Below, piece by piece: positions 28,437 to 53,700 of a DNA stretch of 64,000 nt. The stretch's first letter is position 1. The number at the start of each line of letters is the position of its first letter. The stretch spans positions 3,836 through 67,835 of the forward strand of contig WRJS01000002.1 of the NCBI GenBank assembly GCA_009778475.1. The letters run 5' to 3'. A program made the translations under genes and the position numbers. The notes below the pieces were generated by a model. The model ran no database searches. It had not been told where the DNA came from and worked only from the letters and a program-made list of their open reading frames with translations. The stretch is from Kiritimatiellota bacterium (GTDB lineage Bacteria; Verrucomicrobiota; Kiritimatiellia; RFP12; UBA1067).

Positions 28437-30428
28437 TCACTCCTTCTCCTTCAACTTTTTTAGCCGCTCCGTTGCCGTCTTGCGGACAACATCGCTTCTG
28501 TCTTGCGCCGCAATCTGCGCAAGCAGCGCGAGGTCATCTATATTCTCCAGTGCCGCCCCGCGCACGTATTGGTCATCCCTTGTGTTCCTCACGATTCCCG
28601 CAAGGACCGCCTGATCCGTGATCTTGGACACGGCCTCGCGGCGACCGATCATTGCCCTCGCCTCATCCTTCGCAATTTCCGCAAGGAGTGTCTGGTTGGT
28701 AAGCTCCCGCACGGCCGTGGAAGCCAACCTCGGTTCTTTGTCATTTTTTGCAAGTTCCGCGAGAAGCGCCTGATCCGTGAGTTTGCGTATTGCCATTAGG
28801 CGCACATGAATATCATACGCGTCACGTTGCGCGATTTCCGCAAGGACCGCCTGATCCGTAATCTTGCCCATGACGATGTTGCACACACTCGGCTCCTTTT
28901 CACCCTTCACGACTTCCGCAAGGGCCGCCTGATCGGTGAGTTTCGTGATTATCATACCGCGCACCTGCCCGTCCTTTTCATCTTTCGCGATTCCCGCAAG
29001 GACGGCCTGATCCGTGATTTTACTTATTGCCGTGCCGCGCACCTGCTTGTTCGTTTGCTTCTTCATGACTTCCGCAAGGGCGGCTTGATCCGTGAGTTTC
29101 CGCACGGCAATGTGACGCACCAGATCGTCCTTGTCACTTTTCGCGATACGCGCGAGGGCGGTCTGATTGTTGAGCCTGCTTGTCGCCTCCGCGCGCGCGT
29201 CTCGGTCTGTGCTTTCCTTCGCGGTTTTCAAAAGTTGTTCTTGGTCGGCGGCTTTTTCAGGGGCCGCGGGAGCAACACCCGCGCCCTCCTCCTCGGTTTG
29301 CACAGGAAGTGCGACACCCTTCTTCAATTGCTCCAGCCGTGACGCCGCCCGTAGGCGCATTTCTCTGCTTTTGTCATCCTTGGCTAATTGCGCGAGAAGA
29401 GCCTGATCTTCTAATCTCACGACAGCCTCCCAACGTATCGACCATTCTTTTTCTTTTGTCATGATTTCCGCAAGGGCGGCTTGGTCGGTGAGTTTCCGCA
29501 CGGCCGCCGAGCGTACCTGCGAGTCCTTGTCTGTCTTTGCAATCTCGGCAAGAAGCACTTGGTCTTTCAACAGTTTCACAGCCTCCCGGCGAACACTTGA
29601 ATGTTCGTCGTTTTTCGCAATCCGCGCAAGGAGAGCCTGATCCGTGAGCCTTGCCGTAGCCTCCCAGCGCATCCAAGGGTTCTTGTCCTCCGTTGCCATC
29701 TGCGTGAGGAACGCTTGGTCATCGAGTTTGGATGCCGCCTCTATGCGCACAAACACGTCCCGGTCAGTCATGAAGATCTCTTCAAGAACCGCCCGGCTAT
29801 CCAGTCTTGCCACAACCGCCCGGCGCACATCCCTATCTTCCTTCGTATCCTTGGCGATCTGCGCGAGAAACGCCTGATCCGTGATTCGAGGCAAAACCTC
29901 TAGGCGTACATCATTGTTTTTCCCGTCCCTCGCGATTTCCAGAAGAAGCGCCTCGTCCGTGATTTTGGATAACGCCTCAAAAGCAACGGGCAGACTCGAA
30001 TCGCTCTTCGCAATCTGCACAAGGAGCGCGGTGTCTTTGAGCCTGCGCACCGCCGACTGGCGCACGTTTGAATCCCCGTGCCGCTTCGCGATGTCCGCGA
30101 GAATCGCCTGGTCTTTAATCTGAAAGACCGCATGCACACGCGTCTCACTGACGTCACGCGCGGGTGTCTCCGCGACCTCTATGTTCCACACGATGTCCGC
30201 AAGGAGTGCTTGGTCTTTGATTTGGCTTACCGCAAATTGGCGCACTAAATAATCCTTGTCCGTTTTCGCGATTTGCGCAAGGCGTTTTTCATCCCTGATT
30301 GTGTGCAACTCCTCGAAACGCGCCTCCCAGCCCTCGTCATGCGTCGGGTACGGGTGGCTCCTCGCCATGCACTCGGAAGCCCCTGCCAGCAGAGCGAAGA
30401 GCAGCAGCAGATGTGTGAAGCGTCTCAC
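28437..30428 (-). CDS. secreted HEAT-repeat (PBS-lyase HEAT-like) protein with about 20 tandem ~31-aa repeats
   Basis: Signal peptide MRRFTHLLLLFALLAGA. Repeats of the form ...VR.AAV.KLTDQALLAEIAKNDK.... Confidence 0.7.
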   Translation of the reverse strand: MRRFTHLLLLFALLAGASECMARSHPYPTHDEGWEARFEELHTIRDEKRLAQIAKTDKDYLVRQFAVSQIKDQALLADIVWNIEVAETPARDVSETRVHAVFQIKDQAILADIAKRHGDSNVRQSAVRRLKDTALLVQIAKSDSSLPVAFEALSKITDEALLLEIARDGKNNDVRLEVLPRITDQAFLAQIAKDTKEDRDVRRAVVARLDSRAVLEEIFMTDRDVFVRIEAASKLDDQAFLTQMATEDKNPWMRWEATARLTDQALLARIAKNDEHSSVRREAVKLLKDQVLLAEIAKTDKDSQVRSAAVRKLTDQAALAEIMTKEKEWSIRWEAVVRLEDQALLAQLAKDDKSREMRLRAASRLEQLKKGVALPVQTEEEGAGVAPAAPEKAADQEQLLKTAKESTDRDARAEATSRLNNQTALARIAKSDKDDLVRHIAVRKLTDQAALAEVMKKQTNKQVRGTAISKITDQAVLAGIAKDEKDGQVRGMIITKLTDQAALAEVVKGEKEPSVCNIVMGKITDQAVLAEIAQRDAYDIHVRLMAIRKLTDQALLAELAKNDKEPRLASTAVRELTNQTLLAEIAKDEARAMIGRREAVSKITDQAVLAGIVRNTRDDQYVRGAALENIDDLALLAQIAAQDRSDVVRKTATERLKKLKEKE

Positions 30429-38758: not shown

Positions 38759-38916
38759 GGGACGCGGGGACTATGATGATGGCGATGGGACTACAGGACT
38801 ACGGGACACCGGGACTACGGGGCGGGGACTGCGGGACGCGGGGACACACGTTCCGTCGTCCCGAAATCGCAGTCCTGTCGTCCAGAGTCCGTCGTCCCCA
38901 AAATGAGGAGAACAAA
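38759..38916. repeat. family-A intergenic element A1 (GGGAC-tract / GTCCC-tract imperfect palindrome)
   Basis: gggacgcggggac...gggactacaggactacgggacaccgggactacgggg...ccgtcgtcccgaaatcgcagtcctgtcgtccagagtccgtcgtcccc, followed by GAGGAG-N7-ATG of tpsA. Confidence 0.7.
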
Positions 38917-41900
38917 ATGAAGGTTTTCAATTTCTTTCGTGGACGGATGTCGCGCGTCATTGCCGCGCTGGCGCTGTGGGGCCTGCTGGCGCCGATGGGC
39001 GCGTTCGCGTTGCCGCAGGGCGGCAGCGTCCGCTCGGGCGATGTGTCGTGGGGCAGTTCAGGCGGCACGATGACGGTCAACCAGCAGTCGGCGCGCGCGA
39101 TCATCAACTGGAACACGTTCAGCATCGGCAGCACGGAGACGGTGCAGTTCAACCAGCCCGACGCGAGCGCGGCCATCCTGAACCGCGTGACGGGGCCGTA
39201 CTCGAGCGACATTTTCGGCAGCCTGCTGGCGAACGGCAACGTCTATCTCATCAACCCCAACGGCATCCTCTTCGGGGCGGGCGCGCGCATCAACGTGGGC
39301 GGGCTCGTGGCCTCGACGTTCGACATCTCGGACGATGACTTCAACCTCGGGAAACTCGACTTCAAGAACACGGGCAATTCCGGCAAGGTGGTGAACCGCG
39401 GCAGCATCTCGGCCGCGTCGTTCGCGTACCTGATCGGCGCGGGCGTGGAGAACCACGGCACGATCACAACCCCGGCCGCCGCGCTGGCCGCGGGGCACAG
39501 CCGGATCGTGATCGACCGCACGGCCATGGGCGGCGAGATCCGCCTGAGCGTGGACGCGGACATGGCGCCGATCTCCTTCACGACGTTCGACGCGCCGCAG
39601 GGCATGGCCAACGTCATCAACACGGGCGTGATTGACGCCTCGGGCGCGACGGGCGGCGACGTGGCCTTGCAGGGCGTGAACGTCGTGCAGTCCGGCACGA
39701 TCCGCGCAGACGGCATCGAGGGCGACGGCGGGCGCGTGCGCCTCTTCGGCGAACGCCTCGTCACGCTGGGCAGTGACAGCGTGACCACCGCGAACGCGGG
39801 GCGCGCGGGCGACGGCGGGCGCATCGAACTCATCTCCAGGGATTTCCTCGGCGTGTACGAGCGCGCCTACATCGCGGCGCGGGGCGGGACCCTGCGCGGC
39901 AACGGCGGCTTCGTGGAGACGAGCGGCCACGAGCGTTTCGTCATCGAGGCCGCGCCGGACGTGGGCGCGTACAACGGGCGCGGCGGCGAGTGGCTGATCG
40001 ACCCGCGCGACATCACGATCGTCGCGGTCGGCGACGAGGGGTGGGTGTGGAACGACAACGATATGTTCGCCCTCTGGGACAACACGAAGATTAAGGTCGC
40101 GGACATCCTCTCGGGCTTGGCGAACGGCGACGTGACCATCCACACGGGGACGGACGGAACGGCGGACGGCGACATCCATGTGAACGCGGACATCGGCTAT
40201 GCCATCCATCCCGGCACCACGCTGACGCTGGACGCGGCGCGGGACGTCAACCTCAACGCCAACGTCACGGCCGGCGCGGACAACACGCTCGGCCTCACCG
40301 CCGGGCGCGACGTGAACCAGAACAACGGCAACGTGCAGGTCGGCACGGTGGATTTCGACGTGGCGGGCGATGTCACGATGACAAGGCCGGACAACCGCAT
40401 CGGGACGCTCACGGGGACGGTCGGTGGCAACCTCGACCTCGCCAACAACCGCACGCTCAACCTCGACGGCCTGCGCGTCGCGGACGGCACGACCACGCTC
40501 AACGTCAACGGCGACCTCACGGATGCGGGCGCGAACACGCTTGCGGATCTGACCGTGCGCACGACGGGCGACATCGTCCTCGACGCGGCCAACGACTTGG
40601 GCGCGGTCACCGCCAACGCCAACAACGGCAAGGGCAGCATCACGCTCCGCGACGCGGCGGGCGACCTCAACGACGACGGCATCGTCCTGCGCAACATCGA
40701 CGGCGGCACGCTCACCGTCATCGCGGACGACGGCAGCATCACCCAGCAGGGCGGCACGCGCGTCCAGATTCTGGCGGACGCGGACGCGGGGATTTCGGGC
40801 GCGACCGACCTGACCGCGGCCGACCAGATCACTCTCTTTAATAGGAGAAACGATTTCGGCGGGCCCGTGAGCGCACGCGCGGCGGGCATCCAGTTGCGCG
40901 ACCGCAACAGCATCGTCCTCGACGAGATCGTCGCGGGCGTGGACGGGCTGACGGTGCGCACGGACCGCGGCGCCATCACGCAGATGGACGGTTACCCGGC
41001 CATCAGCGTCTTGGGCGAGACGCGCCTCACCGCGCGTAACGGTCGGCGCCCGGCGGACATTCTCCTCGAGAACGGGTTCAACAATTTCGTCGGCGCGGTC
41101 CATGCCGACGGCCGCAACATCGCGCTCACGGATGTGGACAGCATCCGCCTCGGGCGCATCGACGCCACGCGCACGCTCACCGTCCATGCGGACGGCGGCG
41201 ACATCACGCAGACGCCCGACGGCGTGCGGGTGCGGGGCGAGACCACGCTCTTCGCCACGGGCGACATCACGCTCGACAACCCCGTCAACGATTTCATCAA
41301 CGGCCCCGTCCACGCCAAGGGCATCAACATCGCGCTCACCGACGCCAACGACATCCTGCTCGGGCGCGTCGAGGCCGGCAACGCCGACGTGCGCGGCACG
41401 CTCGACGTGATCGCGCTCGACGGCGACATCACGCAGACGGCCGACGGCATCCTCGCGACGGGCGAGGCCACCTTCACCGCCGAGGGCAACGCCATCGCGC
41501 TCGGCGAGGCCGCGAACGATTTCCAGGACACCGTGAACGCCTACGCCAACGACGTCACCCTCACCGACGGCGCGGGCGGCATCAGCATCGGCCGCGTCAA
41601 GGCGCTGGCCGACCCCGGCGACGAGACGGCCGCGGAGACGGTCGTCATCACCGCGCTCAACGGCGGCATCACGGACGCGCAGCAGGAGACCGTCGGGCAT
41701 GACGCGGAGGGCTTCGCCACGATGGACGGGCCGCGCATCGTCAACATCATCGCCAACAACCTGCTGCTGCTCGCGGACGGCGACATCGGCGCGGTCGGCA
41801 CACCGCTGGACATCAACGCCGGGACATTGGCGGCGCGTTCGCTCGGCGGCAGCATCTGGCTGTTCGACTCCGGCGCGCTGACCCTCGGCACGGTCAACGG

Positions 41901-44802
41901 CATCGCGGGGCTCACGGCGGCGAACCATGCGAAGGTGGAGACCCTCAACGGGCCGCTCACGGTTGACCAGCGCGTTCTGGCGGGTGGCGACGTGTTGCTC
42001 GCCGCCAACGGCCCCGGCTCGGACGTGACGCTCAACGCCTTGGCTGCGGCGGTCGGGAACCTCACGGTGCTGGCGGCGCGGGACGTCGCGCAAAATGCGC
42101 TTCTGGCGGCACGGCAGACGGTTGACGTCGAGGCCAAGGGCGGGGCCGTCACCATGGGCGGCGGCGCCGCGACGGTCGGCGGCACGGTCGCCTACTACAC
42201 GGCGGGCGACATGGCCGTGACGCGCATCGCGGGCGGCAACGTCCGCCTCGAGGCGGAAGGCAGCATCACGGACGCGAACCTGAACAACGCGCCGAACATC
42301 CTCGCGCAGAACGCCCAACTCGTGGCGGGCGGCTCGGTCGGCGGCGCGGGCGGCACGGAGAGCGACGCCAACCCGCAGGCGCTCAACACCATCGTCGGCA
42401 CGCTGGCGGTGGACGCGGGCCAGAGCGCTTACATCCGCAACACGGGCAATCTGGAAATCGGCGCGGTCGCGCCCATCAACGTCAACCGCGTCGCGCTGGA
42501 CAGCACCACCACGCCGCTTGCGGGGGACGCGCTGTCCGGCGCGACCGCCGGGAACAACCTGAAAATCCTCAACACGCGCGGCGCACTCAACGTGACCTCC
42601 GGCGTGACCGCGCGGGACGGCGACCTCCTGCTGTGGGCGCAGCGCGGCGCGTTGGACATCGGCGCGGACGTGACGGCGGGGAACCTGCTCACGCTCGCGG
42701 GCGAGGGCGTCCGCCTCGGCGCGGGCCTGCTGGCGGGCGGCGACCTGTCCGTGAACGCCGGGGGCGGCAGCCTCACGCTCGGCGCGGGCTATTCGATTGA
42801 CGCGGGGAGCGCGCGCCTGACGGCCGACGGCGACATCGCGCTCGACCGCATCACCGCGCGTGACGTGGTGAGCGTCGTGGCGGGCGGCGACATCACCGAC
42901 GCGAACGCGGACGACACCGCGAACATCACGGCGGCGCGCGTGCGCCTGCAGGCGAGCGGCAGCATCGGCTCGGGCGACGGCGAGGAGAGCGACGCGAACC
43001 CCACGGCGGTGAACGTTGCGGCGGGCAACCTCGAGGCCATCGCCGAAGGCAACATCTATCTGCAGGCGGAGGGCGGCCTGACCATCGGCGGGGTAGGGGA
43101 CGTGACCCTCTCCGAGGCGCGGTTTGACAGCGGCGCCACCATGGCCGTGCGCGACACGGACCTGACGGGCGTGACGGCGGTCAACGGCGTGGCGAAGATC
43201 AAGGCCGGCGCGTTGACGGTGGACGAGGGCGTCACCGCCGGGACCGACGCGCTGCTGCTCACGACCGAGGGCGACCTCACGCTGAACGCGGCGCTGAACG
43301 CGGTCGGCATGGCGTCGCTCTTCGCGGCGGGCAACCTCAACCAGAACGCCGACATCACCGCGGGCGGCGACATCTTCCTCAGCGGCGCGAGCATCCTGAC
43401 GGCCAGCGGCATCGCGCTCCACGGCGACAACGTGCGCTATGCGTCCACGCTCGACGCGCTCATCGGCAACATCACCGCGAACGGCCTCGTGAACATCGTC
43501 GCCGGGCGCGACATCATCGACGCCAACCACGACAACGCGGCGAACATCGTAGCCGACCGCATCCGCCTCGAGGCGGGCGGCTCTGTCGGCAGCGCGGCCG
43601 ACGCGCTGGACATCGAGGCCAACACCGTCGCCGTGCAGGCTACGGGCGAGGCGTACCTGCGCTCACAAGGCGACATCACCATCGGCCGCATCGAGCAGGT
43701 GGAGACCGACTACGCGCGCTTCGACAGCGGCACCACGACCGTGATCGACCCGCCGCTGGCGGGCCTCACGACGGGCGGCAACGCCTCGCTGGTCTCCGTC
43801 AACGGCAACATCGGCCAGACGACGGGCGGCGATGTGTTTGTCGGCGGCACGACGCGGCTGGAGGCCCGCAACGGCGACGTCACGCTGGAGAACGCGAACA
43901 ACGATTTCGTCGGCCAGGTGGACGGCGTGGCGCGGAACATCTACCTGCGCGACCGCAACGACCTCTTCGTCGGGCAACTCGCCGCCAACGGTCACGTCCG
44001 CCTCACGGCCGCGGGCAGCATCCTCGCGGCGCAGGGCTACCCCAACGTGATCGCCGGGACCGCGGAGTTTTACTCGGGCCGCGACATCGGCCACCCGCTC
44101 TACATCAGCGTGGGCACGATCATCAACGCCATCGCCGGGGGCAACATCTCCCTCACGCAGGTCTCGGGCAACATGAACATCCTCGGCCAGGTCTATGCCG
44201 GGGGCAACGTGCGCCTCGACGTGCTGCACGGCGGCATCGTTGACGCCGACGGCGACGGCTACGTGCCGCCGTGGCGCGTCACGCCCGACAACGCCGACAT
44301 CTATTCCGGCGGCACCATGACGCTGATCGCGGACTTCGTCGGGACGCTGCGCGAGCCGGTGGAGATCATCGCGGGCCGCGGGCTGTGGCTGGGGTCGCAC
44401 CGCCCGCCCGCGCCGCCAAACGGCGCGTTCCCGTGGGTGGTCGTCAACGGCCGCGTCGGCGGCGGCGCACGCAACATCCACGTCAACCAGAGCGGCGTGC
44501 CGGGGCTGGTGATTTACAACGGCCAGCCGATCTGGGGGCCGTGGTGGACGATGCGGCAGTTCCAACTGGCCCAGCGCTCGCTCGCGGACAACGACCAGCC
44601 CAACCTGCTGGACAGCGGCATCGTCAAGTTGCCGTGGTTCCTGCACCCCGACATGAGCCTCCTCTCCCCCGCCCCCGTGCGCGACGACCTGCGCGAGGCC
44701 GAGGAGAAGGGGATCACGGGGCTGGACGAGGACCTCCCCGAGGACGCGCCGCGCACAAAGGCCCTCGGCCTGCCCGTGACGATGATGGGGGGAGGACGGT
44801 AG
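38917..44802 (+). CDS. TpsA-type exoprotein (filamentous haemagglutinin-like) with N-terminal TPS secretion domain
   Basis: Extended signal peptide, then PQGGSVRSGDVSWG...ARAIINWNTFSIGSTETVQFNQP...ILNRVTG...ANGNVYLINPNGILFGAGARINVGGLVAST, a near-textbook FhaB/ShlA TPS domain. About 1700 aa of beta-helical Gly/Asp/Asn-rich repeats follow. No VENN motif. Confidence 0.88.
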   Translation: MKVFNFFRGRMSRVIAALALWGLLAPMGAFALPQGGSVRSGDVSWGSSGGTMTVNQQSARAIINWNTFSIGSTETVQFNQPDASAAILNRVTGPYSSDIFGSLLANGNVYLINPNGILFGAGARINVGGLVASTFDISDDDFNLGKLDFKNTGNSGKVVNRGSISAASFAYLIGAGVENHGTITTPAAALAAGHSRIVIDRTAMGGEIRLSVDADMAPISFTTFDAPQGMANVINTGVIDASGATGGDVALQGVNVVQSGTIRADGIEGDGGRVRLFGERLVTLGSDSVTTANAGRAGDGGRIELISRDFLGVYERAYIAARGGTLRGNGGFVETSGHERFVIEAAPDVGAYNGRGGEWLIDPRDITIVAVGDEGWVWNDNDMFALWDNTKIKVADILSGLANGDVTIHTGTDGTADGDIHVNADIGYAIHPGTTLTLDAARDVNLNANVTAGADNTLGLTAGRDVNQNNGNVQVGTVDFDVAGDVTMTRPDNRIGTLTGTVGGNLDLANNRTLNLDGLRVADGTTTLNVNGDLTDAGANTLADLTVRTTGDIVLDAANDLGAVTANANNGKGSITLRDAAGDLNDDGIVLRNIDGGTLTVIADDGSITQQGGTRVQILADADAGISGATDLTAADQITLFNRRNDFGGPVSARAAGIQLRDRNSIVLDEIVAGVDGLTVRTDRGAITQMDGYPAISVLGETRLTARNGRRPADILLENGFNNFVGAVHADGRNIALTDVDSIRLGRIDATRTLTVHADGGDITQTPDGVRVRGETTLFATGDITLDNPVNDFINGPVHAKGINIALTDANDILLGRVEAGNADVRGTLDVIALDGDITQTADGILATGEATFTAEGNAIALGEAANDFQDTVNAYANDVTLTDGAGGISIGRVKALADPGDETAAETVVITALNGGITDAQQETVGHDAEGFATMDGPRIVNIIANNLLLLADGDIGAVGTPLDINAGTLAARSLGGSIWLFDSGALTLGTVNGIAGLTAANHAKVETLNGPLTVDQRVLAGGDVLLAANGPGSDVTLNALAAAVGNLTVLAARDVAQNALLAARQTVDVEAKGGAVTMGGGAATVGGTVAYYTAGDMAVTRIAGGNVRLEAEGSITDANLNNAPNILAQNAQLVAGGSVGGAGGTESDANPQALNTIVGTLAVDAGQSAYIRNTGNLEIGAVAPINVNRVALDSTTTPLAGDALSGATAGNNLKILNTRGALNVTSGVTARDGDLLLWAQRGALDIGADVTAGNLLTLAGEGVRLGAGLLAGGDLSVNAGGGSLTLGAGYSIDAGSARLTADGDIALDRITARDVVSVVAGGDITDANADDTANITAARVRLQASGSIGSGDGEESDANPTAVNVAAGNLEAIAEGNIYLQAEGGLTIGGVGDVTLSEARFDSGATMAVRDTDLTGVTAVNGVAKIKAGALTVDEGVTAGTDALLLTTEGDLTLNAALNAVGMASLFAAGNLNQNADITAGGDIFLSGASILTASGIALHGDNVRYASTLDALIGNITANGLVNIVAGRDIIDANHDNAANIVADRIRLEAGGSVGSAADALDIEANTVAVQATGEAYLRSQGDITIGRIEQVETDYARFDSGTTTVIDPPLAGLTTGGNASLVSVNGNIGQTTGGDVFVGGTTRLEARNGDVTLENANNDFVGQVDGVARNIYLRDRNDLFVGQLAANGHVRLTAAGSILAAQGYPNVIAGTAEFYSGRDIGHPLYISVGTIINAIAGGNISLTQVSGNMNILGQVYAGGNVRLDVLHGGIVDADGDGYVPPWRVTPDNADIYSGGTMTLIADFVGTLREPVEIIAGRGLWLGSHRPPAPPNGAFPWVVVNGRVGGGARNIHVNQSGVPGLVIYNGQPIWGPWWTMRQFQLAQRSLADNDQPNLLDSGIVKLPWFLHPDMSLLSPAPVRDDLREAEEKGITGLDEDLPEDAPRTKALGLPVTMMGGGR

Positions 44803-45220
44803 GGAGAGTGTGGAGAGTGGAGGGTGGAGAGTGGAGTTGCGAAGGGACGATGGGACAAGGGGACGCAAGGACGATGATGATGGCGGATTTGGGGACTACG
44901 GACTACAGGACTACAGGACTACGGATTGGGGACGAAGGGACGCAAGGACAGTGATGATGGCGGAGGGACTACAGGACTACGGGACTACGGGACTACGGCT
45001 TTCGGGACGTGGGGACGCGGGGACATGGGGACAGCGGCTGCTTAAAAGCCGTTGTCCCGTTGTCCCGTGTCCCGTCGTCCCGAAAGCCGCCGCCGCCGTC
45101 CCCTCGTCCCCTCGTCCCCCCACAACTCCACTCTCCACACTCCACTCTCCACACTCCTCTTTCCACACTCCACTCTCCACCCTCCACTCTCAACACTCGC
45201 CCCACCGTCCCCTCGTCCCG
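44803..45220. repeat. family-A element A2: ~400-bp composite imperfect palindrome (GGAGAGTGGAG arms, GGGACTACGG repeats, G4 motif, 12-bp stem hairpin, CCCGT tracts)
   Basis: Left arm gagagtgtggagagtggagggtggagagtggag pairs with right arm ctccactctccacactccactctccacactcc. Core gggacgtggggacgcggggacatggggacagcggctgcttaaaagccgttgtcccgttgtccc. Internal duplication of a gatgatggcgga..ggactacgg module. Confidence 0.8.
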
Positions 45221-45223
45221 ATA

Positions 45224-47533
45224 CTGCTGGCGGTCGTGTTGGCGACCCACGTCGCCAGCGCGGAGCCAGACTGGTTCTTTGAGACTACGGCGCGGACGTT
45301 TGTCACGAACAGCGCGGGGTGGCGGTTTGCGGCGACGGCGAATGCCGGGGCGGGGACGCTCAACGTCGGCGTGTGCAGCCGTGCGCCGGACGTGGCGGGG
45401 GTGCTGGATTTCTCGGGCGGGGTCTCGGACGAGGTCAACGGCACGGGCAACACGTTTGACATCGTGGCCATCAACGGCTCGGTGCTGGGCTCGGCCTCTT
45501 CGGCGTACATCCCGAAGGCGTCGGGGCTCGTCCTGCCCTCCACGCTCACGAACCTCGCCGCCAACGCCTTCAACGCCTGTACCAACATGACGGGTTCGCT
45601 CGTCCTCCCCGACGGCGTGGTCTCCATCGGCAACTACGCCTTCCAGAACTGCCGCTTCACGGGTGCGCTCGTCCTCCCCGACAGCGTGACCTCCATCGGC
45701 AACTCCGCCTTCAGCGGCTGCGCCTTCGGTGGCTCGCTCGTCATCCCCGACAGCGTGACCTCCATCGGCAACTACGCCTTCAGCGGCTGCCCCTTCGGCG
45801 GCTCGCTCGTCATCGGCGACGGCGTGACCTCCATCGGCTACAGCGCCTTCAATGGCAACACCTTCTCGGGCAGCGTCACCTTCGGGGCGGGCCTCGTGGA
45901 CTTCGGCAACTATATTTTCTGCAACACCACCTTCGACGTCCGCACGCTCACCTTCCCCGACACCGCCAAGAGCATCGGCAACGCCTTCAACCTTAGCGGC
46001 AACGCGAACCTCCACGCCACGTTCGTCAACACCTCCCTCGTCCTCGGCGACGGCGTGACGAACATCGCCGCGTATGCGTTCCACACCACCGGGCTGACGG
46101 GGACGCTGACGCTCGGCACCAACCTCCACGCCATCGGCGACTACGCCTTCCGCGACTGCAAGATTACGGGCGGCCTCGCCGTCCCCGACAGCGTGAGGAC
46201 TGTCGGCTCCTACGCCTTCAGCGGTGGTGGCTACACGGGGACGCTGACGTTCGGCACGAACCTCCTTGCCATCGGCAACAACGCCTTCCAGAACTGCAAG
46301 TTCACGGGCGACCTCGTCCTCCCCGACAGCGTGACCTCCATCGGCAACAACGCCTTCGACGGTTGCGCGTTCAACGGGAAACTCCACATCGGCTCCACCG
46401 CGACCTGCGCCATCGGCACCTACGCCTTCCAGAACAGCCCCTTCGGCGGCTCGCTTCTCATCGGCGACGGCGTGACCTCCATCGGAACGCGCGCCTTCAA
46501 CGGCAACACGTTCTCCGGCTCCGTCACCTTCGGGGCAGGCCTCGTGAACTTCAACAACACCATCTTCTGCAACACCGCCTTCGACATCCCCCTGCTCGTC
46601 ATCCCCGATACCGTCAAGAGCATCGGCGACGCCTTCAGCAGTGGCAGCACCTCGTCCTACCGCGCCACGTTCAACGGCGCCACCCTCTTCCTCGGCGACG
46701 GCGTGACCAACGTCGCCGCGAGCGCGTTCCGCTATTGCACCGGGCTCGAGCGCATCTCCTCCCCCTCCACCGACATCGCCATCGGCAACTACGCCTTCCA
46801 AGCGACATCGTTGCGGGGAGTCTACTACCGGGGCGGCTACCCCAAGAGCGTCGGGGCGACCCTCTACTACGGTTCCTCCGCCTGCACCTCCTACGTCACC
46901 CGCGCCAGCGTCGCCGACTGGGAATGGTTCACGGGGCTCGACATCCTCGGCGGCGCCGCGACATGGCAAGCCAAGCCCATCCGCGTCGCCGACGCCGACG
47001 ACCTCCCCGGCATCCTCGCCCTCGACCCCATGGGCGGCTACGGCGGCGCCACCACCGCCCGCCTCGGCGGCGACGGGCAACTGCCCCCCGGCCTCGCCGC
47101 CCCACGGCGCGACAACATGATCTTTGACGGCTACTGGGATGCGCCGCAAGGTAGCACTATGTACCTCGCGCCCGACATGACGCCGTGCGCCGCGTGGCCC
47201 GACCCCAACGGCGGCAAACTCTACGCCCGCTGGACTGACCTCGAAGACGAGGACTTCCAGTCGATATGCATTGAGGCGATCGAGGTCTTGGAGGACGGCG
47301 ACGTGGCGCTTTTCTGGAACCGCGACCGCGTGAAGTTCACGTACACGAAGGAGCCTTACACGGTCGTCGTTCAGGGCGCGGAGGACCTTGCCGGGTGGAA
47401 TGTGTTGGAGGAGGGCGGCGACTACACCCTCGACACCGCGCCGAACCCGCGCCGCCTCCACAAGGCGCGGGTCACGCCCCCCGCCGGAGCGACGAGGGGG
47501 TTCTTCAAGGCTTGGGCGCAGAGGGATGAATGA
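45224..47533 (+). CDS. BspA-type leucine-rich-repeat surface protein (start codon uncertain)
   Basis: Repeated LVLPDSVTSIGNYAFSGC / LVIPDSVTSIGN.AF.GC units (LRR_5/BspA-like). A hydrophobic LVPILLAVVLATHVASA segment precedes them. No in-frame ATG after the palindrome (candidate CTG/GTG/TTG at 45224-45241). The in-frame ORF back to GTG 44810 would translate the repeat element. Confidence 0.6.
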   Translation: MLAVVLATHVASAEPDWFFETTARTFVTNSAGWRFAATANAGAGTLNVGVCSRAPDVAGVLDFSGGVSDEVNGTGNTFDIVAINGSVLGSASSAYIPKASGLVLPSTLTNLAANAFNACTNMTGSLVLPDGVVSIGNYAFQNCRFTGALVLPDSVTSIGNSAFSGCAFGGSLVIPDSVTSIGNYAFSGCPFGGSLVIGDGVTSIGYSAFNGNTFSGSVTFGAGLVDFGNYIFCNTTFDVRTLTFPDTAKSIGNAFNLSGNANLHATFVNTSLVLGDGVTNIAAYAFHTTGLTGTLTLGTNLHAIGDYAFRDCKITGGLAVPDSVRTVGSYAFSGGGYTGTLTFGTNLLAIGNNAFQNCKFTGDLVLPDSVTSIGNNAFDGCAFNGKLHIGSTATCAIGTYAFQNSPFGGSLLIGDGVTSIGTRAFNGNTFSGSVTFGAGLVNFNNTIFCNTAFDIPLLVIPDTVKSIGDAFSSGSTSSYRATFNGATLFLGDGVTNVAASAFRYCTGLERISSPSTDIAIGNYAFQATSLRGVYYRGGYPKSVGATLYYGSSACTSYVTRASVADWEWFTGLDILGGAATWQAKPIRVADADDLPGILALDPMGGYGGATTARLGGDGQLPPGLAAPRRDNMIFDGYWDAPQGSTMYLAPDMTPCAAWPDPNGGKLYARWTDLEDEDFQSICIEAIEVLEDGDVALFWNRDRVKFTYTKEPYTVVVQGAEDLAGWNVLEEGGDYTLDTAPNPRRLHKARVTPPAGATRGFFKAWAQRDE

Positions 47534-47725
47534 GGCATGAGAAGTGTGGAGAGTGGAGTTGCGCAGGGACGAAAGGATGATGACGATGACGATGACGGAT
47601 TTTGGGATTACGGACTACAGGACACCGGGACTACGGCTTTCGGGGCGTGGGGACGCGGGGACATGGGGACAGCGGCTGCTTAAAAGCCGTTGTCCCGTTG
47701 TCCCGCCGTCCCAGCGTCCCAAACC
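47534..47725. repeat. family-A element A3; ~90-bp core nearly identical to A2 (44985-45073 vs 47620-47708)
   Basis: gaagtgtggagagtggagttgcgcagggacga...gggactacggctttcggggcgtggggacgcggggacatggggacagcggctgcttaaaagccgttgtcccgttgtcccg, then AGGAG-N8-ATG of the next gene. Confidence 0.8.
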
Positions 47726-47750
47726 CTGTTAATTTTTAGGAGAAAACGTT

Positions 47751-48743
47751 ATGAAGAAAATGCTGATAATCGTGACGACCGCTCTGCTGTCCTGCGCCGC
47801 TTCGGCGCAGACGCGGGTGCAGACCGTGGCGTTGGAGAAGGGGTGGAACGCGGTGTGGCTGGAGGTCCAGCCGGAGTTCGCGTCGCCGGGGGATGTGTTC
47901 GGGGACGCGCCCGTGGACATCGTGGCGGGGTATGTGAAGCCGGTGTCGGAGGCGCAGTTCGCGAAGAGCACGGCCGTCAATGTCCAGTCGCTCTCGGGGT
48001 GGAACGTGTGGTACGCGCCGCACCGCGCGGACGCGCCGCTCTCGCGCCTGCGGCAGTTGCGCGGGGACATGGGCTACCTCGTCCATGCGCTCGCGCCCGC
48101 GACGGTGACGGTGCGCGGCACGGTCAGCGGGGCGGCGTTCTGCTGGACGCCCAACCGCTTCAACCTCGCGGGGTTCACGGTCGCGGCGCAGGGTGCGCCG
48201 ACGTTCCGGCAGTTCTTCCAGGGCTCCCCGGCGCACAACCACAACAAGGTCTATCGCCTGGCGGAGGGCGTCTGGCGGCAGGTGCTGAACCCTGACGCGG
48301 AGGCGATGCGGCCGGGCGAGGCGTTCTGGGTTTTCTGCGCGGGCGGGTCGGACTGGCAGGGACCGCTGGCGGTCGCGGCCAACGCCTCGGCCGGGCTGAT
48401 GCTGGTGGGCGCGCTGCCGGGCGAGGTCACGTTCAAGAACGCCTCGCCGCACCCGCTGGGCGTCACGCTCGCGCTGGTGACGGAGGACGGCAATGCCGCG
48501 CTGCCGCTGGCCGCGGTCATCAAGGCCGTGCTGCCGGACACGGCGGGGGTGACGGATGTGCCGATCGATTTCCCGGACGGCGCGTGGTCGCAGGACTTCC
48601 CGGCGCTCGAGGCGGGCGGGGGGCTGAAACTGCCGTTCGCGCTGCGCATCAAGGAGGCCGCGCAGGGCGGTTCGACGGGCCTGCTGAAAGTGACGACGGA
48701 CCTCGGCACGGAGACGTGGGTGCCGGTGCGGGCGGTGAATTGA
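47751..48743 (+). CDS. hypothetical secreted protein (330 aa)
   Basis: AGGAG RBS, signal peptide MKKMLIIVTTALLSCAASA, no recognised domain. Confidence 0.6.
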   Translation: MKKMLIIVTTALLSCAASAQTRVQTVALEKGWNAVWLEVQPEFASPGDVFGDAPVDIVAGYVKPVSEAQFAKSTAVNVQSLSGWNVWYAPHRADAPLSRLRQLRGDMGYLVHALAPATVTVRGTVSGAAFCWTPNRFNLAGFTVAAQGAPTFRQFFQGSPAHNHNKVYRLAEGVWRQVLNPDAEAMRPGEAFWVFCAGGSDWQGPLAVAANASAGLMLVGALPGEVTFKNASPHPLGVTLALVTEDGNAALPLAAVIKAVLPDTAGVTDVPIDFPDGAWSQDFPALEAGGGLKLPFALRIKEAAQGGSTGLLKVTTDLGTETWVPVRAVN

Positions 48744-48805
48744 TGGGTTGATTTTTCGACTGAAGTCGAGTGAAATCGACTGAGGGCGACTGAAATCGGG
48801 TTAAG
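48744..48805. repeat. family-B element B3 (truncated: GGGTTGATTTTT + TCGACTGA units + GTTAAG centre, right arm missing)
   Basis: gggttgatttttcgactgaagtcgagtgaaatcgactgagggcgactgaaatcgggttaagtcgag. Confidence 0.65.
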
Positions 48806-48826
48806 TCGAGCATTTGGAGAGAAATT

Positions 48827-50605
48827 ATGAAAAAGGCATTGGTGATGATGATGGCCGCGGCGACGGGAGCCGCCGCAATGGCGGAGGTGAGCCCTTATGC
48901 GGGGCTGTGGGTCGGGAGCGTGGGCCTGACGACGGTGAACGAGGTTTCGATCCCGCTGGACGCGGATAATGTGCCGCGCGCGCCGGACCCGCTGAAGCCG
49001 ACGGTCACGGGCAGCCGCGCGGACCTGCGCCTCATCATCCATGTGGACGCGGCGGGGCGGGCGAGCCTGCTGAAGGATGTGGCGGTCGTCAACCGCAACC
49101 CGTCGGGCGACGCGTCCGCCACCATCGCGGACATCGCGGCGGCGGGGTCGGATGAGTTCGCGCTCTCGCTGGTCACGGACCCCGCGCTGTACGCCGAGTA
49201 CCCGATGCAGAAGGCCACGCGCATCTCGAGCGTCGCGTTTGACTTCGGCGACGCGCAGGCCACGCTCGTGCTGGACGCGCTGGTGGGCCGGGTCGTCGGC
49301 GCGGCGGTGGATGTCGTGAGCGGCAAACCGGCCTCGGCGATTGACACGGCCGCGAAGCGCAACCAGATTATTGAGGACATCGTGGCCGCGGCGCAGGGGA
49401 TGGCGATGCCGCCGGACAATGTCGCGTCCACGTATCAGGCGTTCCTGGATTCGGTGAAGGATGCGGTCCCGGCGATCGCGTCGTCGCCCTCGCCCTCGGC
49501 GGGCGCGGCGGCGCTGTGGATGAACACGGCGAACATCCTGTTCAACGGCTCGTCGTTCGGCGACACCCGTGCGCAGGATCTCGTCCGCGCGGTGCAGGCC
49601 GCGGGCATGGCGAACGGCGGGGCGGACGCGTGGAACGCGGCCTCCGGTTTCGCGGACACGTCCGCCACGGTGACGCGCCTGCTCGTGGGCAAGGCGGTGG
49701 GCGACGCGCTGGCCGGCGCGGCCCAGCACGCGGCCAACACCCCCGGCGCGACGGCGGGGGGGCTGAAGGGGCTGGACACGTCGGCGGACGCGGTCGCGGC
49801 GGCGTTGGCGTCGAAGTGGCACGACAACGACACCCGCGCCACGGGTGCGCTGGACGCGATGTTCGCGGCCATTGCTGCGACGGCCGCGGATGGCCATGCG
49901 GCGGGGGATCTGATCGCGCTGGAGATTCAGGAGCAGGCTTACGCCGCCGGGGCGGCGGCGCTGACGGCGGCGTTGGCGCAGTACCCCGCGCCGCGCAACG
50001 CGCCGACCGACGGCTACACGGCGTTCGTCACGTCCGCCGACTATGCGGCCGTCCCCGAGAAGGCGGCGCGCGCGGCGGCGGCGGCCGCGCTGACCGAGCG
50101 CGTGGAGAACCCGCTGACCTACACGCTGACCCTGCCGTCCGTGGCGAAGGCGGCGGCGATGAACGCGCTCCAGGCCACCTACGCGGCGGCGGCGCGGGCG
50201 AAGTTGAACGAACTGCCGCTGGCGGGCGTGTTCGCGCTGGGCGAGGGCGACCCGCGTTTCGCGGTGGACGTGGAGACGGGCGATATGCTGGGCGCGGCGG
50301 GCCTGACGGGGCGGCTCCTGCTGCCCGCGAACTTCCCGACGAACCCGTTCCGCCACCGCCGCCACCCGGACCACACGCAGGGGTACGACGTGACGCGGAA
50401 CATCCGCATCGATTTTGACGCGCCGGAGGAGCCGGGGAAAATCCCGTCGGTCACGCGCGGCGTGAAGCAGGTGAGCGGGCTGTACCGCGAGGAGGTCTTC
50501 GGGCTGCACAAGCCGCTCGGGCCGGGGCAGGACGTCGGCCTGCGCACGGAGGGGCGGTTTGAACTGAACCGCATCAGCACGATCAGCACGTTGAACGGGA
50601 AGTAG
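48827..50605 (+). CDS. hypothetical secreted Ala-rich protein (592 aa)
   Basis: Signal peptide MKKALVMMMAAATGAAAMA. Long Ala-rich helical-looking regions. No recognised domain. Confidence 0.6.
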   Translation: MKKALVMMMAAATGAAAMAEVSPYAGLWVGSVGLTTVNEVSIPLDADNVPRAPDPLKPTVTGSRADLRLIIHVDAAGRASLLKDVAVVNRNPSGDASATIADIAAAGSDEFALSLVTDPALYAEYPMQKATRISSVAFDFGDAQATLVLDALVGRVVGAAVDVVSGKPASAIDTAAKRNQIIEDIVAAAQGMAMPPDNVASTYQAFLDSVKDAVPAIASSPSPSAGAAALWMNTANILFNGSSFGDTRAQDLVRAVQAAGMANGGADAWNAASGFADTSATVTRLLVGKAVGDALAGAAQHAANTPGATAGGLKGLDTSADAVAAALASKWHDNDTRATGALDAMFAAIAATAADGHAAGDLIALEIQEQAYAAGAAALTAALAQYPAPRNAPTDGYTAFVTSADYAAVPEKAARAAAAAALTERVENPLTYTLTLPSVAKAAAMNALQATYAAAARAKLNELPLAGVFALGEGDPRFAVDVETGDMLGAAGLTGRLLLPANFPTNPFRHRRHPDHTQGYDVTRNIRIDFDAPEEPGKIPSVTRGVKQVSGLYREEVFGLHKPLGPGQDVGLRTEGRFELNRISTISTLNGK

Positions 50606-50751
50606 GGGGAGACTTTATGGAAAGCGGGACTACGGGACGACGGACGACGGGACTACGGCTGGGGACGATGGGACGCGAGGACGCGGGGACTGTTTGTCGT
50701 CCCGTAGTCCCGGCGTCCTGTGTCCCGAGAAATCGAATTTGGAGGAAAAAC
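50606..50751. repeat. family-A element A4
   Basis: gggactacgggacgacggacgacgggactacggctggggacgatgggacgcgaggacgcggggactgtttgtcgtcccgtagtcccggcgtcctgtgtccc. The left gggactacgggacgac pairs with the right gtcgtcccgtagtccc. Confidence 0.7.
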
Positions 50752-53700
50752 ATGAGCAAGCGATGGATGATAATGCTGGCGGCGCTGCCGCTGTGTGTGT
50801 TGGCGGGTGAGTTGCCGTTCACGGCGGTGCTGAGGCCTTACATGGGCCCGCAGCACAGTTCCTATGTGAACCAGAACATGGTTAATTTCAAAATCATCAA
50901 CGACTCGCCGGAGACCATCACGGGCATCATCGTGACGCGCAACAACGGCGCCCCCGACAACACGCGGTTCAACTACGTGATCCCGGGGTCGGCGGGCGTG
51001 GGCGGCATGATCCTCACGCCGAACGTCGTGGCCAGCAGCGCGGACGCGTCGGGCATCGGCTACATCCGCGAATACTGGCAGTACCCCGCCGGGTTCGTCC
51101 TGCCGAGCATGTACCCGGTGATAGAGGCGTCGTATGTGTCGTCGGACTCGGTGACCGGGCGCAGCATCCAGCGCACGGGCAACTTCGGCGACTTCCTGAA
51201 CGTCGGCGATTATTTCATGGCGCGGATGCACGGGTACCTGACGGTTCCGCAGGCGGGGAAGTACCATTTCCAGATGCGGGTGGACGACTGCGGGTATGTG
51301 CTTTACCGCCGCTCCGACGGCTCGGCGGGCTTCCTGTTCAACGAGAGGTGGAATGACAATCAAGGGAAATGGCACACCAGCGACACGACGCTGACGTTCG
51401 CGGCGGGCGAGGTGATCTATCTGGATGCGTTCCACCTGGAGGCCGCGGGGAACGACTACCTGAACCTGGAGTGGGCGCGCGAGGAGGTGCTCGTGCCGGA
51501 ACTGGAGACGGAGTCTGAGCGGCACATTGCCCTTTTGTCGGCTGACTGGCTGTACCATTTTTCCTCTTTTCTGTTGCTTCCCCTTCCCCCGGATTACCAA
51601 AACAAGAGTTACGGGCCCGATCTGTCGTTCGGCATCAACACAATCACGTGGAAGGGTAAGACGATGACGGCCAGCAATTTTTACTGGGAGGATTATTTTG
51701 ATGTCTGTGACTACATCAACCATGCGGTCACCTGGACGTTTCAACCGATCCCCTCGATGGCGTTTTCGACCAAGAGGCCGGTGGCGGGCTCGCCGTGGTT
51801 TTGGGACTCGTTCCCGACCTTGAACGACACCACCATCACCGACAACGGCGGGGCGAACAAGAGCATCCGCATCGCGGGGCTCGCGCTCACGTCCGGCAAC
51901 GAGATGCAATTCGCCGCGTCGCTGGAGGACTGGATATTGGTGAACGCCATACACCCCGAGGGCTACAACTACGCGCCGGAGGTGCTGTGGAACCTGCCCG
52001 CCTCGCAGCCGAAGGCAACGATCACGGTGTTCGGCTCGTTCGGCAACTCCAGCACGATCACGCTCGGCGCGACCCCGGACATCGCGCCAGACAGGGACTA
52101 CACCTTCAAGTCTGATGCGCGGCCGCTGAAACTGAAGGTGCGGAGCATCGGCGAGGACGGCAACCCCAACAAGCGCGCGGCGCGTTTCCGCGTGACCATC
52201 ACGGACCCGACCAGCGACGAGGCCCCGCTGGTGCGGGACAACATCGACCTTGCCAACGAGGAGGACCTGGTGGCGTCGTTCGAGTTCAACGAACTCCGCG
52301 CCGGGATGCAGGTGCTGTTCGAGGCGGTGGAGGAGAGTTATTTCGACAAGAGCATGGGTTTCCTCTTCCACACGTTCAACCAGGTCACGGAGGCGAGCAA
52401 GATCGCCGAGGCGGTGGAGCGGTACGTCGCCTCGGGCCTGAGCGTGAACGACACGGCGCAGACGGGCGACCCGACGCAGTATTCCTTCGAGATACGCGGC
52501 GACACGCGGATCGACTTCCGCACGCGCCACGAGTACGCGCTGGACGTGTCGAGCGACTTCACGAAGACGGAGGGCAAACTGCTGAACGTCGCGGGCAAGC
52601 CGTGGACGGGCCCGCTGACCTCCGCCGCGTCCGGTGCGCCGGACCCCGCCGCCGGGGTCGGCAACGAGCGCGTCCGCCACTGGATCGAGGAGGGCACGCA
52701 GGTCACGGCGCAGATTGACGCGGAGGTTCAGGACATCGCGCTCAGCGCGCAGTTGCTGAACGTGCGCTACGTCCCGTATGAGTACCACGCCAAGGGCGCG
52801 GCGCGGGGCGACGTGCCGTTCGTGCTGGACGAGGTCTCCGTCAACGCGCTGCCGCCCCCGGACCTGCTGGGCCTGCGCCACCAGATCAATTTCAAGATGA
52901 CGAGCCCGGGCAGCATCGACTACCTCTGGAAGATCCAGTTTGGCGCCTACGCGCAGAGCCCGGAGGGCAACCTGCGCAAGGTCCAGCGCTACAACAGCGA
53001 CGGCGCGGTGTGGGAGGAGGTCCCGCCCCTCGGCGCGGTCTATTGGTTCGACCAGGGCGACGGCGTGCGCGTCCTGACCGCCGCGAACAAGGACTCCGTG
53101 GACTCCAAGGCGCTCACGGGCTGGGTGCTGGGCGACGGCTACTACTTCGCGTCCGAGTGCAACATCAACACGGACACGGGCGAGCCGGTGGGCATGGCCA
53201 TCACGCTCGACGTGAACAACAACCCCGTGGCGCAGTGGGTCACCGAGACGATCGGCGGGAAGGCCTATCGCGGGCTGGAGATCGCCAACCTGCTGCGCCC
53301 GGCCGCGGTGACGTGGAGTTACGGCCGGCAGGTCTTCTACGACCCGATGCTGACGCTGGGCGAGTATATGCTGCAAGGGCGCTCCGACCCCATCGAGAAG
53401 AAGTACCCGGCCGTGGCGGCGCGGCTCTTCGACCCGCCCACGAGCGTGGACCCGCCGGACGCGGCGATCTGGGACCCGAACGCCAAGGTGCTCTTCCCCA
53501 TCAAGCCCGGCCTCATGAAGGCCATCTACACGGGCGACACGCCGGACAGCGGCTTCGAGGTGCACGTCACCGCGAAGTGGCCCGCCAAGCCGCACTACGC
53601 GCACGTCGCGGACACGCCGCCCGTGCAGTTGTCGCCCGACCCGAACGGCAGTTTCCTCTTCGTGGAGAAGTCGTATGAGGAGGACGGCGTGCAGGTCGTC

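Follow-up and report, generated by a model that had tools for sequence, protein, structure and literature searches.

Hairpin repeats and a missing gene start in a two-partner secretion operon of a Kiritimatiellota bacterium

We analyzed 64,000 nt of DNA, hereafter the window, from a metagenome-assembled genome (MAG) of a Kiritimatiellota bacterium (assembly GCA_009778475.1, contig WRJS01000002.1, positions 3,836-67,835 of the forward strand; Bacteria; Verrucomicrobiota; Kiritimatiellia; RFP12; UBA1067 in GTDB). All coordinates are window positions, position 1 being the first letter of the window. The window carries a two-partner secretion (TPS) operon in which a gene for a BspA-type leucine-rich repeat (LRR) protein stands between two hairpin elements, A2 and A3. 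Both elements belong to a repeat family dispersed over the operon, the slot behind the exoprotein gene tpsA varies in content among related operons, the LRR gene lacks its native start, the right arm of A2 arose as a mirror copy, and a reading frame runs open through A2 into the gene. With moderate confidence we propose that the hairpin family colonized this operon, that the LRR gene was inserted in the variable slot, that growth of A2 erased its start and that any expression would now begin within A2. The consequence of interest is the presence of repeat hairpins inside, or in place of, the 5' ends of genes for secreted proteins.

Repeat elements around the LRR gene

A2 and A3 form a direct repeat (44974-45067 and 47612-47705) with 96% identity over 94 nt, and their longest exact match is 60 nt (45008-45067 and 47646-47705). 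By BLASTN they align at 91% over 122 nt in the core and at 78% over 131 nt in their left parts, and a 32-nt core next to the loop occurs at these two sites only within the window (0.00 expected by chance). They are much closer to each other than to the remaining members of the family, E38, E50 and E62 (78-84% over ~60 nt; Table 1). Within the family, A2 and A3 are thus nearest to one another, and their 60-nt exact match is long enough for homologous recombination. The original prediction, made from the letters of the window, had put their similarity at ~97% over ~90 bp and had credited A2 with an internal tandem duplication and with added arms that make a ~400-bp palindrome. Each of these features was recovered, as was the BspA-type identity of the intervening gene (LRR_5, PF13306, E = 4.4e-84, 279 bits, five stretches). 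The repeats also flank the LRR gene as claimed, but this arrangement is not special to it: homologous elements stand at E38, E50 and E62.

A2 is the most elaborate of these elements. A unit of period 77 is present in 2.3 copies (44852-45025, 82% matches, Tandem Repeats Finder), and the same program detects, besides the array in the right arm, a further heptamer/14-mer array on the left side (44806-44836). The outer GGAGAGT/ACTCTCC arms (44794-44837 versus 45167-45210) are 93% complementary, and the best local inverted alignment pairs 44806-44860 with 45102-45156. A 436-nt region spanning the element folds with -238.8 kcal/mol, compared with -176.6 +/- 7.5 for shuffled sequences (z = -8.3), and the complementary strand folds equally well. 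The base of the palindrome consists of the last codons and TAG stop of tpsA (GGACGGTAG), with the inverted repeat beginning at 44794, and this stop region is mirrored in the right arm as CCACCGTCC. At 45167-45220 the heptamer block is present in tandem for a second time, as the mirror of 44794-44837. Because the mirrored sequence belongs to tpsA, the right arm appears to have been made at this locus and not delivered by a mobile element. Inverted, template-switch-like copying is its likely origin.

A2 and A3 belong to a hairpin family with five members in the window, whose arms are arrays of GGGACNNN/NNNGTCCC octamers and which occupies four spacers of the operon and the 5' end of its last gene, encoding a PpiC-like protein. 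Runs of GGACTAC-type octamers mark the five sites (~38790, 44900-45000, 47612, 50627 and 62623). Over the whole window the octamer motif gives 20 matches (0.13 expected by chance) and the heptamer motif 10 (0.04 expected). When six copies from the five elements were aligned, A2 contributing two left halves, a shared order of parts became apparent: optional (GGAGAGT)n, a purine-rich, Shine-Dalgarno (SD)-like GGGACGCAAGGAC, a ATGATGATGGCG box, (GGACTACN)3-4, GGCTTT, (GGGACNNN)n, a loop and (NNNGTCCC)n. All five elements lie on the sense strand of one string of genes. A second family, built of TCGACTGANN decamers, forms hairpins at 25246-25369, 26130-26243 and 48750-48815, so that the window holds 5 octamer-type and 3 decamer-type copies. 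According to Tandem Repeats Finder, 8 sites of the window carry arrays with periods of 7, 8 and 10.

The sense RNA is more stable than the antisense RNA in six of seven window elements (E38, A3, E50, E62, T48 and T25), among them T25, which sits in a minus-strand operon; A2 is neutral. This asymmetry is only suggestive of structure at the RNA level. No Rfam 15 family matched at its gathering threshold anywhere in the window, and an E-value scan of 44700-47800 returned sub-threshold look-alikes of miRNA precursors only, that is, generic long hairpins. A scan of 38500-51000 for promoters and terminators placed none at A2 or A3, with counts not above those of shuffled sequences, which rules out a sigma-70 promoter or a classical intrinsic terminator as the identity of the elements. 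No transposase, integrase, recombinase or RAYT gene was found among the proteins of the window (28 checked for Y1_Tnp). By eye, on the alignment and the raw sequence, five of the six copies have an ATG inside the element whose distance from the end of the GGACTACGG array is divisible by 3; a conserved upstream open reading frame (ORF) from this ATG was not called, the related sequences being too few. At E38 and E50 (38773-38916 and 50617-50751), ATGs 12-15 nt past the upstream stop open frames through the element, in frame with the downstream genes, which have their own SD sequence and ATG.

In a scan of genome contigs covering many phyla, GGGAC octamer arrays were present at no fewer than 120 loci outside the window (at least 120). 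Among the matches listed, GGGACNNN arrays of at least 4 units occur in Cyanobacteria, Acidobacteriota, Gemmatimonadota, Planctomycetota, Verrucomicrobiota (including Akkermansia), Alistipes and Streptomyces. Most of these arrays are one-armed. Because complementary GTCCC arrays lie nearby in only 4 of the 120 listed outside loci, the paired-array hairpin form appears to be characteristic of this lineage. Each listed octamer array also fits the canonical G-quadruplex motif G3N5G3N5G3N5G3. Our literature search found no specific description of octamer-type or paired-array hairpin repeats in Kiritimatiellia or Verrucomicrobia.

Some further repeats were observed elsewhere in the window. A small gene for a protein with 23S_rRNA_IVP and Top1-type zinc-ribbon domains (25370-26092, minus strand) sits between the TCGACTGANN decamer hairpins at 25246-25369 and 26130-26243, the second case in the window of a gene between two hairpins of the same family. 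Read on the sense strand, each of these two hairpins is bounded by a run of T at its 5' end and a run of A at its 3' end. Between T25 and the start of a radical-SAM gene lies a TGGTT/TGGTTGGTT array with ~9 copies of a 5-mer (25217-25260, minus strand), and an ORF for a HEAT-repeat protein (663 amino acids (aa), minus strand) contains an internal 78-nt tandem repeat (28894-29101, 2.7 copies, 75% matches).

Table 1. Genes, elements and sub-elements of the operon, in window coordinates.
Feature	Position	Strand	Basis or remark
tpsB	36341-38758	+	PF03865 and PF01103
E38, between tpsB and tpsA	38760-38900	+	motif count, folding, alignment
tpsA, FHA-like two-partner secretion exoprotein, 1961 aa	38917-44802	+	PF05860 (TPS), PF18886 (DUF5649)
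A2, compound imperfect palindrome, ~420 nt	44794-45220	+	inverted repeat, tandem repeat, folding
A2 left heptamer arm	44794-44837	+	pairs with 45167-45210
ORF through A2 into the LRR gene	44810-47533	+	candidate starts GTG 44810, GTG 44831, TTG 44837, GTG 44951, ATG 44954, ATG 44957
A2 77-nt tandem duplication	44852-45025	+	Tandem Repeats Finder
A2 core hairpin	44996-45089	+	
A2 right heptamer/14-mer array, 5.6 copies	45120-45198	+	Tandem Repeats Finder
A2 outer right arm	45167-45210	+	mirrors left arm including tpsA stop region
BspA-type LRR protein body	45221-47533	+	PF13306, E = 4e-84; BLASTP to P0002
A3, single-copy element of the same family as A2	47540-47725	+	canonical SD and ATG 47751 of the 330-aa gene downstream
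Conserved 330-aa gene	47751-48743	+	synteny anchor
T48, decamer-type (TCGACTGANN) hairpin of the second family, in the spacer after the 330-aa gene	48750-48815	+	tandem repeats, folding; same in sister-strain contig L122
E50, upstream of the 3101-aa gene	50620-50730	+	motif count, folding, alignment
PpiC/SurA-like lipoprotein gene, last of the operon	62601-63608	+	
E62, inside the annotated 5' end of the PpiC-like gene	62605-62700	+	folding, alignment

The slot behind tpsA and the LRR start

The operon reads tpsB, tpsA, the LRR gene, a 330-aa gene, a 592-aa gene and genes for a 3101-aa PA14 protein, an 818-aa cadherin-like protein and a PpiC/SurA-like lipoprotein (Pfam). The succession of a TpsB (ShlB/Omp85) gene and a TpsA gene with a TPS domain identifies it as a two-partner secretion operon. 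The 330-aa gene has 229 homologues, of which those with source names all come from Kiritimatiellia. We used it as a synteny anchor and compared the contigs of six homologues with the window.

The slot between tpsA and the 330-aa gene holds A2, the LRR gene and A3 in the window, and its content differs among the relatives. In L132/L133, where the homologue of the 330-aa protein is 65% identical, the gap between the two genes is 15 nt and the next two spacers measure 14 and 21 nt. The gap is 31 nt in L129 (69%), in which the upstream ORF is cut by the contig start and was taken as tpsA from its position. Longer gaps contain hairpins that match those of the window in architecture and differ in unit sequence, made of CACAGAGN/CNTTTGTG and CGCAGAGG/CTTCGTGN units in L126 (75%, gap of 264 nt) and of CACAGATT/AATCTGTG arrays in L130 (69%, 451 nt). 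L131 (69%) encodes a 333-aa protein identical to that of L130 and is 99% identical to it in the flanks; its gap reaches ~1080 nt through extra blocks of ~100 nt. Finally, in L123-L125 (78%) the gap holds the gene for a 2976-aa FGE-sulfatase/RCC1 protein with a normal start. Since L132/L133 and L129 have spacers of 14-31 nt, the hairpin arrays appear to be secondary in the operon and lineage-specific, and because the spacers of L130 and L131 differ so much in length despite the identical protein and near-identical flanks, they also appear very unstable. A gene caller had annotated the longer of these two spacers (L130 9550-10000 versus L131 1486-2565) as a 323-aa 'gene'.

Such comparisons mark the junction of tpsA and the 330-aa gene as an apparent hot spot for repeat growth and gene insertion. 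Among the compared operons the LRR gene occupies this slot in the window only, and, with the content of the slot varying from relative to relative, it looks like an accessory insertion found only in the lineage of the window. The suggestion, made earlier, of a recombination-prone cassette agrees with the gain and loss seen at this slot in orthologous operons and with the 60-nt exact match of A2 and A3. However, the repeats form a dispersed intercistronic family found at most junctions of the operon and are not specific to a cassette. The LRR gene is not a recent import from a donor of different composition, because its third-position GC content (GC3, 0.92) and its codon usage match those of the neighboring genes; on the same grounds a foreign origin by composition was ruled out. 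At equal GC3, the GC skew of the LRR gene is strongly negative (about -0.23 at 45600-47000) compared with values near 0 to +0.2 in its neighbors, and its amino-acid or codon choice is therefore unlike that of the rest of the operon.

On the A3 side, a difference was noticed in the sister-strain contig L122 (JGI sample 3300002505). Its 330-aa protein is 98% identical to that of the window, with a different and shorter signal-peptide beginning (TGATGACCGTGATGCTGGGTGCGAGT; L122 1-45 versus window 47751-47800). The contig begins 2 nt before this signal-peptide start, which overlaps a stop (TGATG). The two sequences diverge inside the signal-peptide coding region and agree fully in the decamer hairpin farther downstream. 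The divergence is a hint of variation between strains on the A3 side, on a contig too short to interpret.

The LRR gene has one close homologue, P0002 (47% identity, 662 aa), which starts with GGAG-N7-ATG and MKKSTA and has the N-terminus MKKSTAISTVIMLLGAAQLAHA/GWYFEN. BLASTP aligns the residue encoded at 45221 in the window (the I of ILLAVVLATHVASA/EPDWFFE) with residue 7 of P0002. Relative to that protein, the LRR gene of the window is without a ribosome-binding site, an ATG and the first ~6 codons. The site of the lost start (45167-45220) is occupied by the outer right arm of A2, and growth of A2 would have overwritten the native start. By sequence comparison, the LRR body begins in the h-region of a signal peptide and keeps an ASA/E signal-peptidase site; the Met and the positively charged n-region are absent at the homologous position, leaving the signal peptide without its beginning.

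Upstream of this point the LRR frame continues into A2. GTG 44810 had been described as the only upstream in-frame ATG or GTG, which is incorrect: GTG 44831, GTG 44951, ATG 44954 and ATG 44957 (and TTG 44837) are available as well, all of them inside A2. The absence of an ATG between the palindrome and the hydrophobic segment was rightly noted, and it extends to GTG and TTG, the first of which (GTG 45236 and TTG 45239) lie within the segment. The NCBI protein P0001 (858 aa, 'Kiritimatiellaeota bacterium') begins at ATG 44957. Unusual initiation, also suggested earlier, is conceivable given the missing native start, but A2 offers conventional ATG and GTG codons in frame, with SD-like sequences.

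Translation through A2 and competing explanations

The history that we favor would have run as follows. Unstable, lineage-specific intercistronic hairpins with optional GGAGAGT/ACTCTCC outer arms would have colonized the two-partner secretion operon. The LRR gene would then have entered the hot-spot slot between tpsA and the 330-aa gene, with the resident element ending up on both sides. A2 would subsequently have expanded in place, by the 77-nt tandem duplication and by a lengthening of its right arm as an inverted, tandemly duplicated copy of the left arm that takes in the tpsA stop region, and this growth would have replaced the ribosome-binding site, the ATG and ~6 codons of the LRR gene. 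Translation, if any, would initiate inside A2, at ATG 44954/44957 or at GTG 44831/TTG 44837, and the ribosome would read through the hairpin, placing a presequence of 88-130 residues (137 from GTG 44810) ahead of the h-region and the ASA/E site.

Read-through of this kind is plausible on several grounds. The 418 nt of A2 contain 0 stops in the LRR frame, and 2 and 3 in the other frames. AAGGA stands upstream of ATG 44954/44957, and GTG 44831 and TTG 44837 have GGAG 7-8 nt upstream, the spacing found at the real starts of the operon at 38917, 47751, 48827 and 50752. Because these last two candidates lie 29-35 nt past the tpsA stop, coupling of their initiation to tpsA termination is conceivable. 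The left arm of A2 contains 5 GGAG and the right arm 8 CTCC, and the arms could mask the candidate starts.

A similar arrangement, with an upstream start, a hairpin and then a signal peptide, was found in the PpiC-like gene of the window and in three of its relatives. The NCBI start of the window gene, ATG 62601, overlaps the upstream stop (TGATG), and the frame runs through E62 into ...LVLLSLALSLLICGC, with no alternative start before the lipobox LICGC. In the outer stem of E62, GGCCAGCG pairs with CGCTGAGCC, a stretch that codes for part of the h-region. Of 19 PpiC orthologues inspected, 11 have short lipoprotein signal peptides, in which 16-29 residues precede the lipobox Cys, and the other 8 carry long, repeat-like extensions. 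In L134 (32% GC) the gene starts at an ATG that overlaps the stop codon of a PDDEXK_3 gene upstream, the entire signal peptide including the lipobox is encoded by a CACAGATT/AATCTGTG hairpin, no ATG, GTG or TTG lies between hairpin and lipobox, and the gene frame has 0 stops compared with 3 and 4 in the others. L135 likewise lacks any ATG, GTG or TTG from the end of its hairpin to the lipobox, and L136 has an SD sequence and ATG in the hairpin loop. Because the PpiC orthologues are conserved genes of the operon, the arrangement is probably compatible with expression. The sequence coding for the PpiC lipobox (ATCTGTGG-TGC; window 62700-62725) is nearly that of the AATCTGTG hairpin unit of the low-GC relatives (L134 2330-2375, L135 790-830 and L136 2100-2130). 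The arrays either grew out of sequence already present at the site or insert at places that match their unit beforehand.

Several points weigh against the proposed history. The 'native' N-terminus is defined by a single close LRR homologue at 47% identity. The open frame through A2 is weak evidence, because A2 contains only three stop-prone motifs (two GATGATGATGG boxes and CTTAAAAG) and, by our own estimate from the sequence, the frame would be open by chance in ~30% of cases. The presequence would be far longer than normal Sec n-regions, and the candidate starts lie within very stable stems. Compared with 1.84 billion representative proteins, the 89-aa presequence matched itself and low-complexity noise only; it has no relatives there and is ruled out as a conserved peptide or domain. 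A metagenome scan with a 23-nt core gave 0 matches, and one with the N-terminal 140 aa of the LRR protein gave 417 pattern matches, none of them confirmed; neither scan turned up an empty-site or copy-number variant of the locus. In the relatives, the asymmetry of sense and antisense folding is mixed, with two elements favoring sense, two equal and one favoring antisense. Finally, the order of insertion, duplication and palindrome growth is one that we infer, as are template switching as the mechanism and the start, if any, that serves.

It is possible, if less probable than the history above, that the LRR gene is a translationally dead, 5'-truncated remnant, its start destroyed by palindrome growth and its open frame a default of GC3 0.92. 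The absence of SD sequence, ATG and n-region relative to P0002 fits such a remnant, as do the chance with which a frame through A2 would be open and the lack of a conserved peptide in the presequence. Long spurious ORFs are common at this GC3, an 822-aa antisense ORF (44993-47461) being one example. A dead gene is harder to reconcile with a body of 770 intact codons with the GC3 and codon usage of its neighbors and with the retention of the h-region and the ASA cleavage site, and the start-less arrangement recurs in conserved, presumably functional PpiC orthologues of several lineages.

We give similarly tentative credit to an explanation that is compatible with the proposed history, namely a Campbell-type integration, in which a circle carrying the LRR gene and one element recombined with the resident element. 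A2 and A3 would then be its two junctions, and excision would be possible through the 60-nt exact repeats. The direct orientation of A2 and A3, their exact match and 91% identity over 122 nt, far above their similarity to E38, E50 and E62, and the variability of the slot in relatives are all consistent with this, and after a deletion a single element would remain ahead of the 330-aa gene, whose SD sequence and ATG would be intact. On the other hand, protein search and metagenome scans found no empty-site allele, circle junction or second LRR copy, there is no recombinase gene in the window, and gene conversion would likewise make neighboring members of the family alike.

Two readings that assign the arrays a regulatory role seem doubtful. 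In the first, the hairpins would be translated 5' modules that double as a switch: the CTCC-rich right arm would mask the GGAG-rich left arm, the masked start would become accessible only once a ribosome terminating at the upstream stop melts the base of the stem, and translation would continue through the hairpin into the signal peptide. If so, secreted-protein genes of this clade would be expressed only when coupled to the upstream gene, they could also be turned on or off as 7- or 8-nt units are gained or lost, and the recurrence of upstream ATG, hairpin and lipobox in PpiC orthologues of several lineages with unrelated units would reflect a selected design and not tolerated junk. In the second, equally unlikely, the 7- and 8-nt units between start and signal peptide would switch a surface antigen on and off by slipped-strand phase variation. 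Neither unit length is divisible by three, the units separate the in-frame starts from the signal peptide, and analogous arrays differ by hundreds of nt in strains with identical flanking proteins (L130 and L131). However, the variation seen there consists of ~100-nt higher-order blocks in a non-coding spacer and not of single units, the metagenome scans found no variant of the A2 locus, and the arrays contain interruptions and mismatches (79-95% matches) that make slippage less frequent.

Initiation at a non-canonical or internal codon by the hydrophobic segment, without an N-terminal extension, is improbable. ATA 45221, CTG 45224/45227, GTG 45236 and TTG 45239 are in frame where the signal peptide of the homologue lies, but the sequence upstream of them, CCCACCGTCCCCTCGTCCCG, has nothing SD-like, a start at GTG 45236 or TTG 45239 would put just ~8 residues ahead of the cleavage site, not enough for export, and ATA and CTG starts are rare. 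We consider it very improbable that the A2 palindrome is an artefact of metagenome assembly (a chimeric fold-back or collapsed repeat): the source is a MAG contig and sister-strain contigs break near these elements, but the arms are 78-93% complementary and the 77-nt copies have 82% matches, where artefactual fold-backs would be exact, and comparable elements occur in independent assemblies of relatives.

The elements have consequences for annotation. Gene callers, including the NCBI pipeline, run ORFs through the elements and produce long, meaningless-looking N-termini, as in the LRR gene, the PpiC-like gene and several orthologues, and recognition of the element family would improve start calls in Kiritimatiellia and probably in other genomes of the Planctomycetes-Verrucomicrobia-Chlamydiae (PVC) group. 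The locus would be a clear natural example of a quasi-palindrome grown in place and erasing translation signals. As a hot spot for accessory surface-protein genes, the slot behind tpsA bears on surface variation in these uncultured bacteria. If the hairpins are translated, the questions arise of how Sec export tolerates presequences of ~100 repeat-encoded residues and whether the repeats give phase variation.

Comparison with known systems

Stem-loops of repetitive extragenic palindromic (REP) sequences and of the bacterial interspersed mosaic elements (BIMEs) can stabilize upstream mRNA and uncouple expression. Like the REP/BIME sequences of Enterobacteria and Pseudomonas, the elements described here are dispersed, imperfectly palindromic and mostly extragenic, and lie between cistrons of one operon. 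REPs are single hairpins of 20-40 nt, headed by GTAG or CGTC and associated with RAYT transposases (PMC3733652). In contrast, the present elements are compound, 100-420 nt long and highly variable in length, and consist of tandem 7-10-nt units. No defined head was seen in them, CGTAG and CGTCG occurring within the units and not as a terminal head, and Y1_Tnp was not found among the 28 window proteins. At 100-420 nt versus 20-40 nt, size and uniformity set them apart from REP/BIME.

In organization the arrays are similar to the short tandemly repeated repetitive (STRR) heptamers of cyanobacteria and to TAACTGA-type repeats. Tandem copies of one 7-10-nt unit are found there at many intergenic sites, frequently right before a start codon, where they overlap the ribosome-binding site or take its place; the window arrays share the recurring tandem units of 7-10 nt. 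The GGGGACT heptamers of a cyanobacterial locus match STRR1. The TAACTGA repeats of Beggiatoaceae, Cyanobacteria and Bacteroidetes are short tandem intergenic units, some of which replace ribosome-binding sites (PMC4679880). Those direct arrays are one-armed, whereas pairs of complementary arrays form long hairpins here.

Another parallel is the cip-cel operon of Clostridium cellulolyticum, where selective RNA processing and stabilization stem-loops are reported in an operon for an extracellular complex (PMC4423207). The two systems share intercistronic stem-loops in a long operon for secreted proteins, and there is no sequence relationship, the hairpins here being much larger and repetitive. 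By this analogy, RNA processing and stabilization would be the likeliest way for the elements to act on the RNA.

The opa genes of Neisseria are contingency loci with CTCTT repeats in the signal-peptide coding region. As in opa, short repeats with a length not divisible by three separate the start codon of a surface protein from the hydrophobic core of its signal peptide; unlike in opa, the arrays are imperfect and palindromic and the extension amounts to ~100 residues. A promoterless gene followed by an imperfect palindrome, with content varying at a fixed site, also recalls integron cassettes and their attC sites. Here, however, the other genes separated by hairpins are conserved, syntenic members of the operon. 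Integron attC sites were ruled out, with no RYYYAAC...GTTRRRY core sites (in the A3 stem GTT is followed by GTCC and not RRRY) and no integrase in the window. Miniature inverted-repeat transposable elements were likewise ruled out: there are no duplicated flanking bases at E38, A3 and E50, and the length is ~100-420 nt and not constant. By analogy, the elements resemble REP/BIME and the selective RNA processing and stabilization stem-loops most closely in function, and the STRR/TAACTGA-type repeats in organization.

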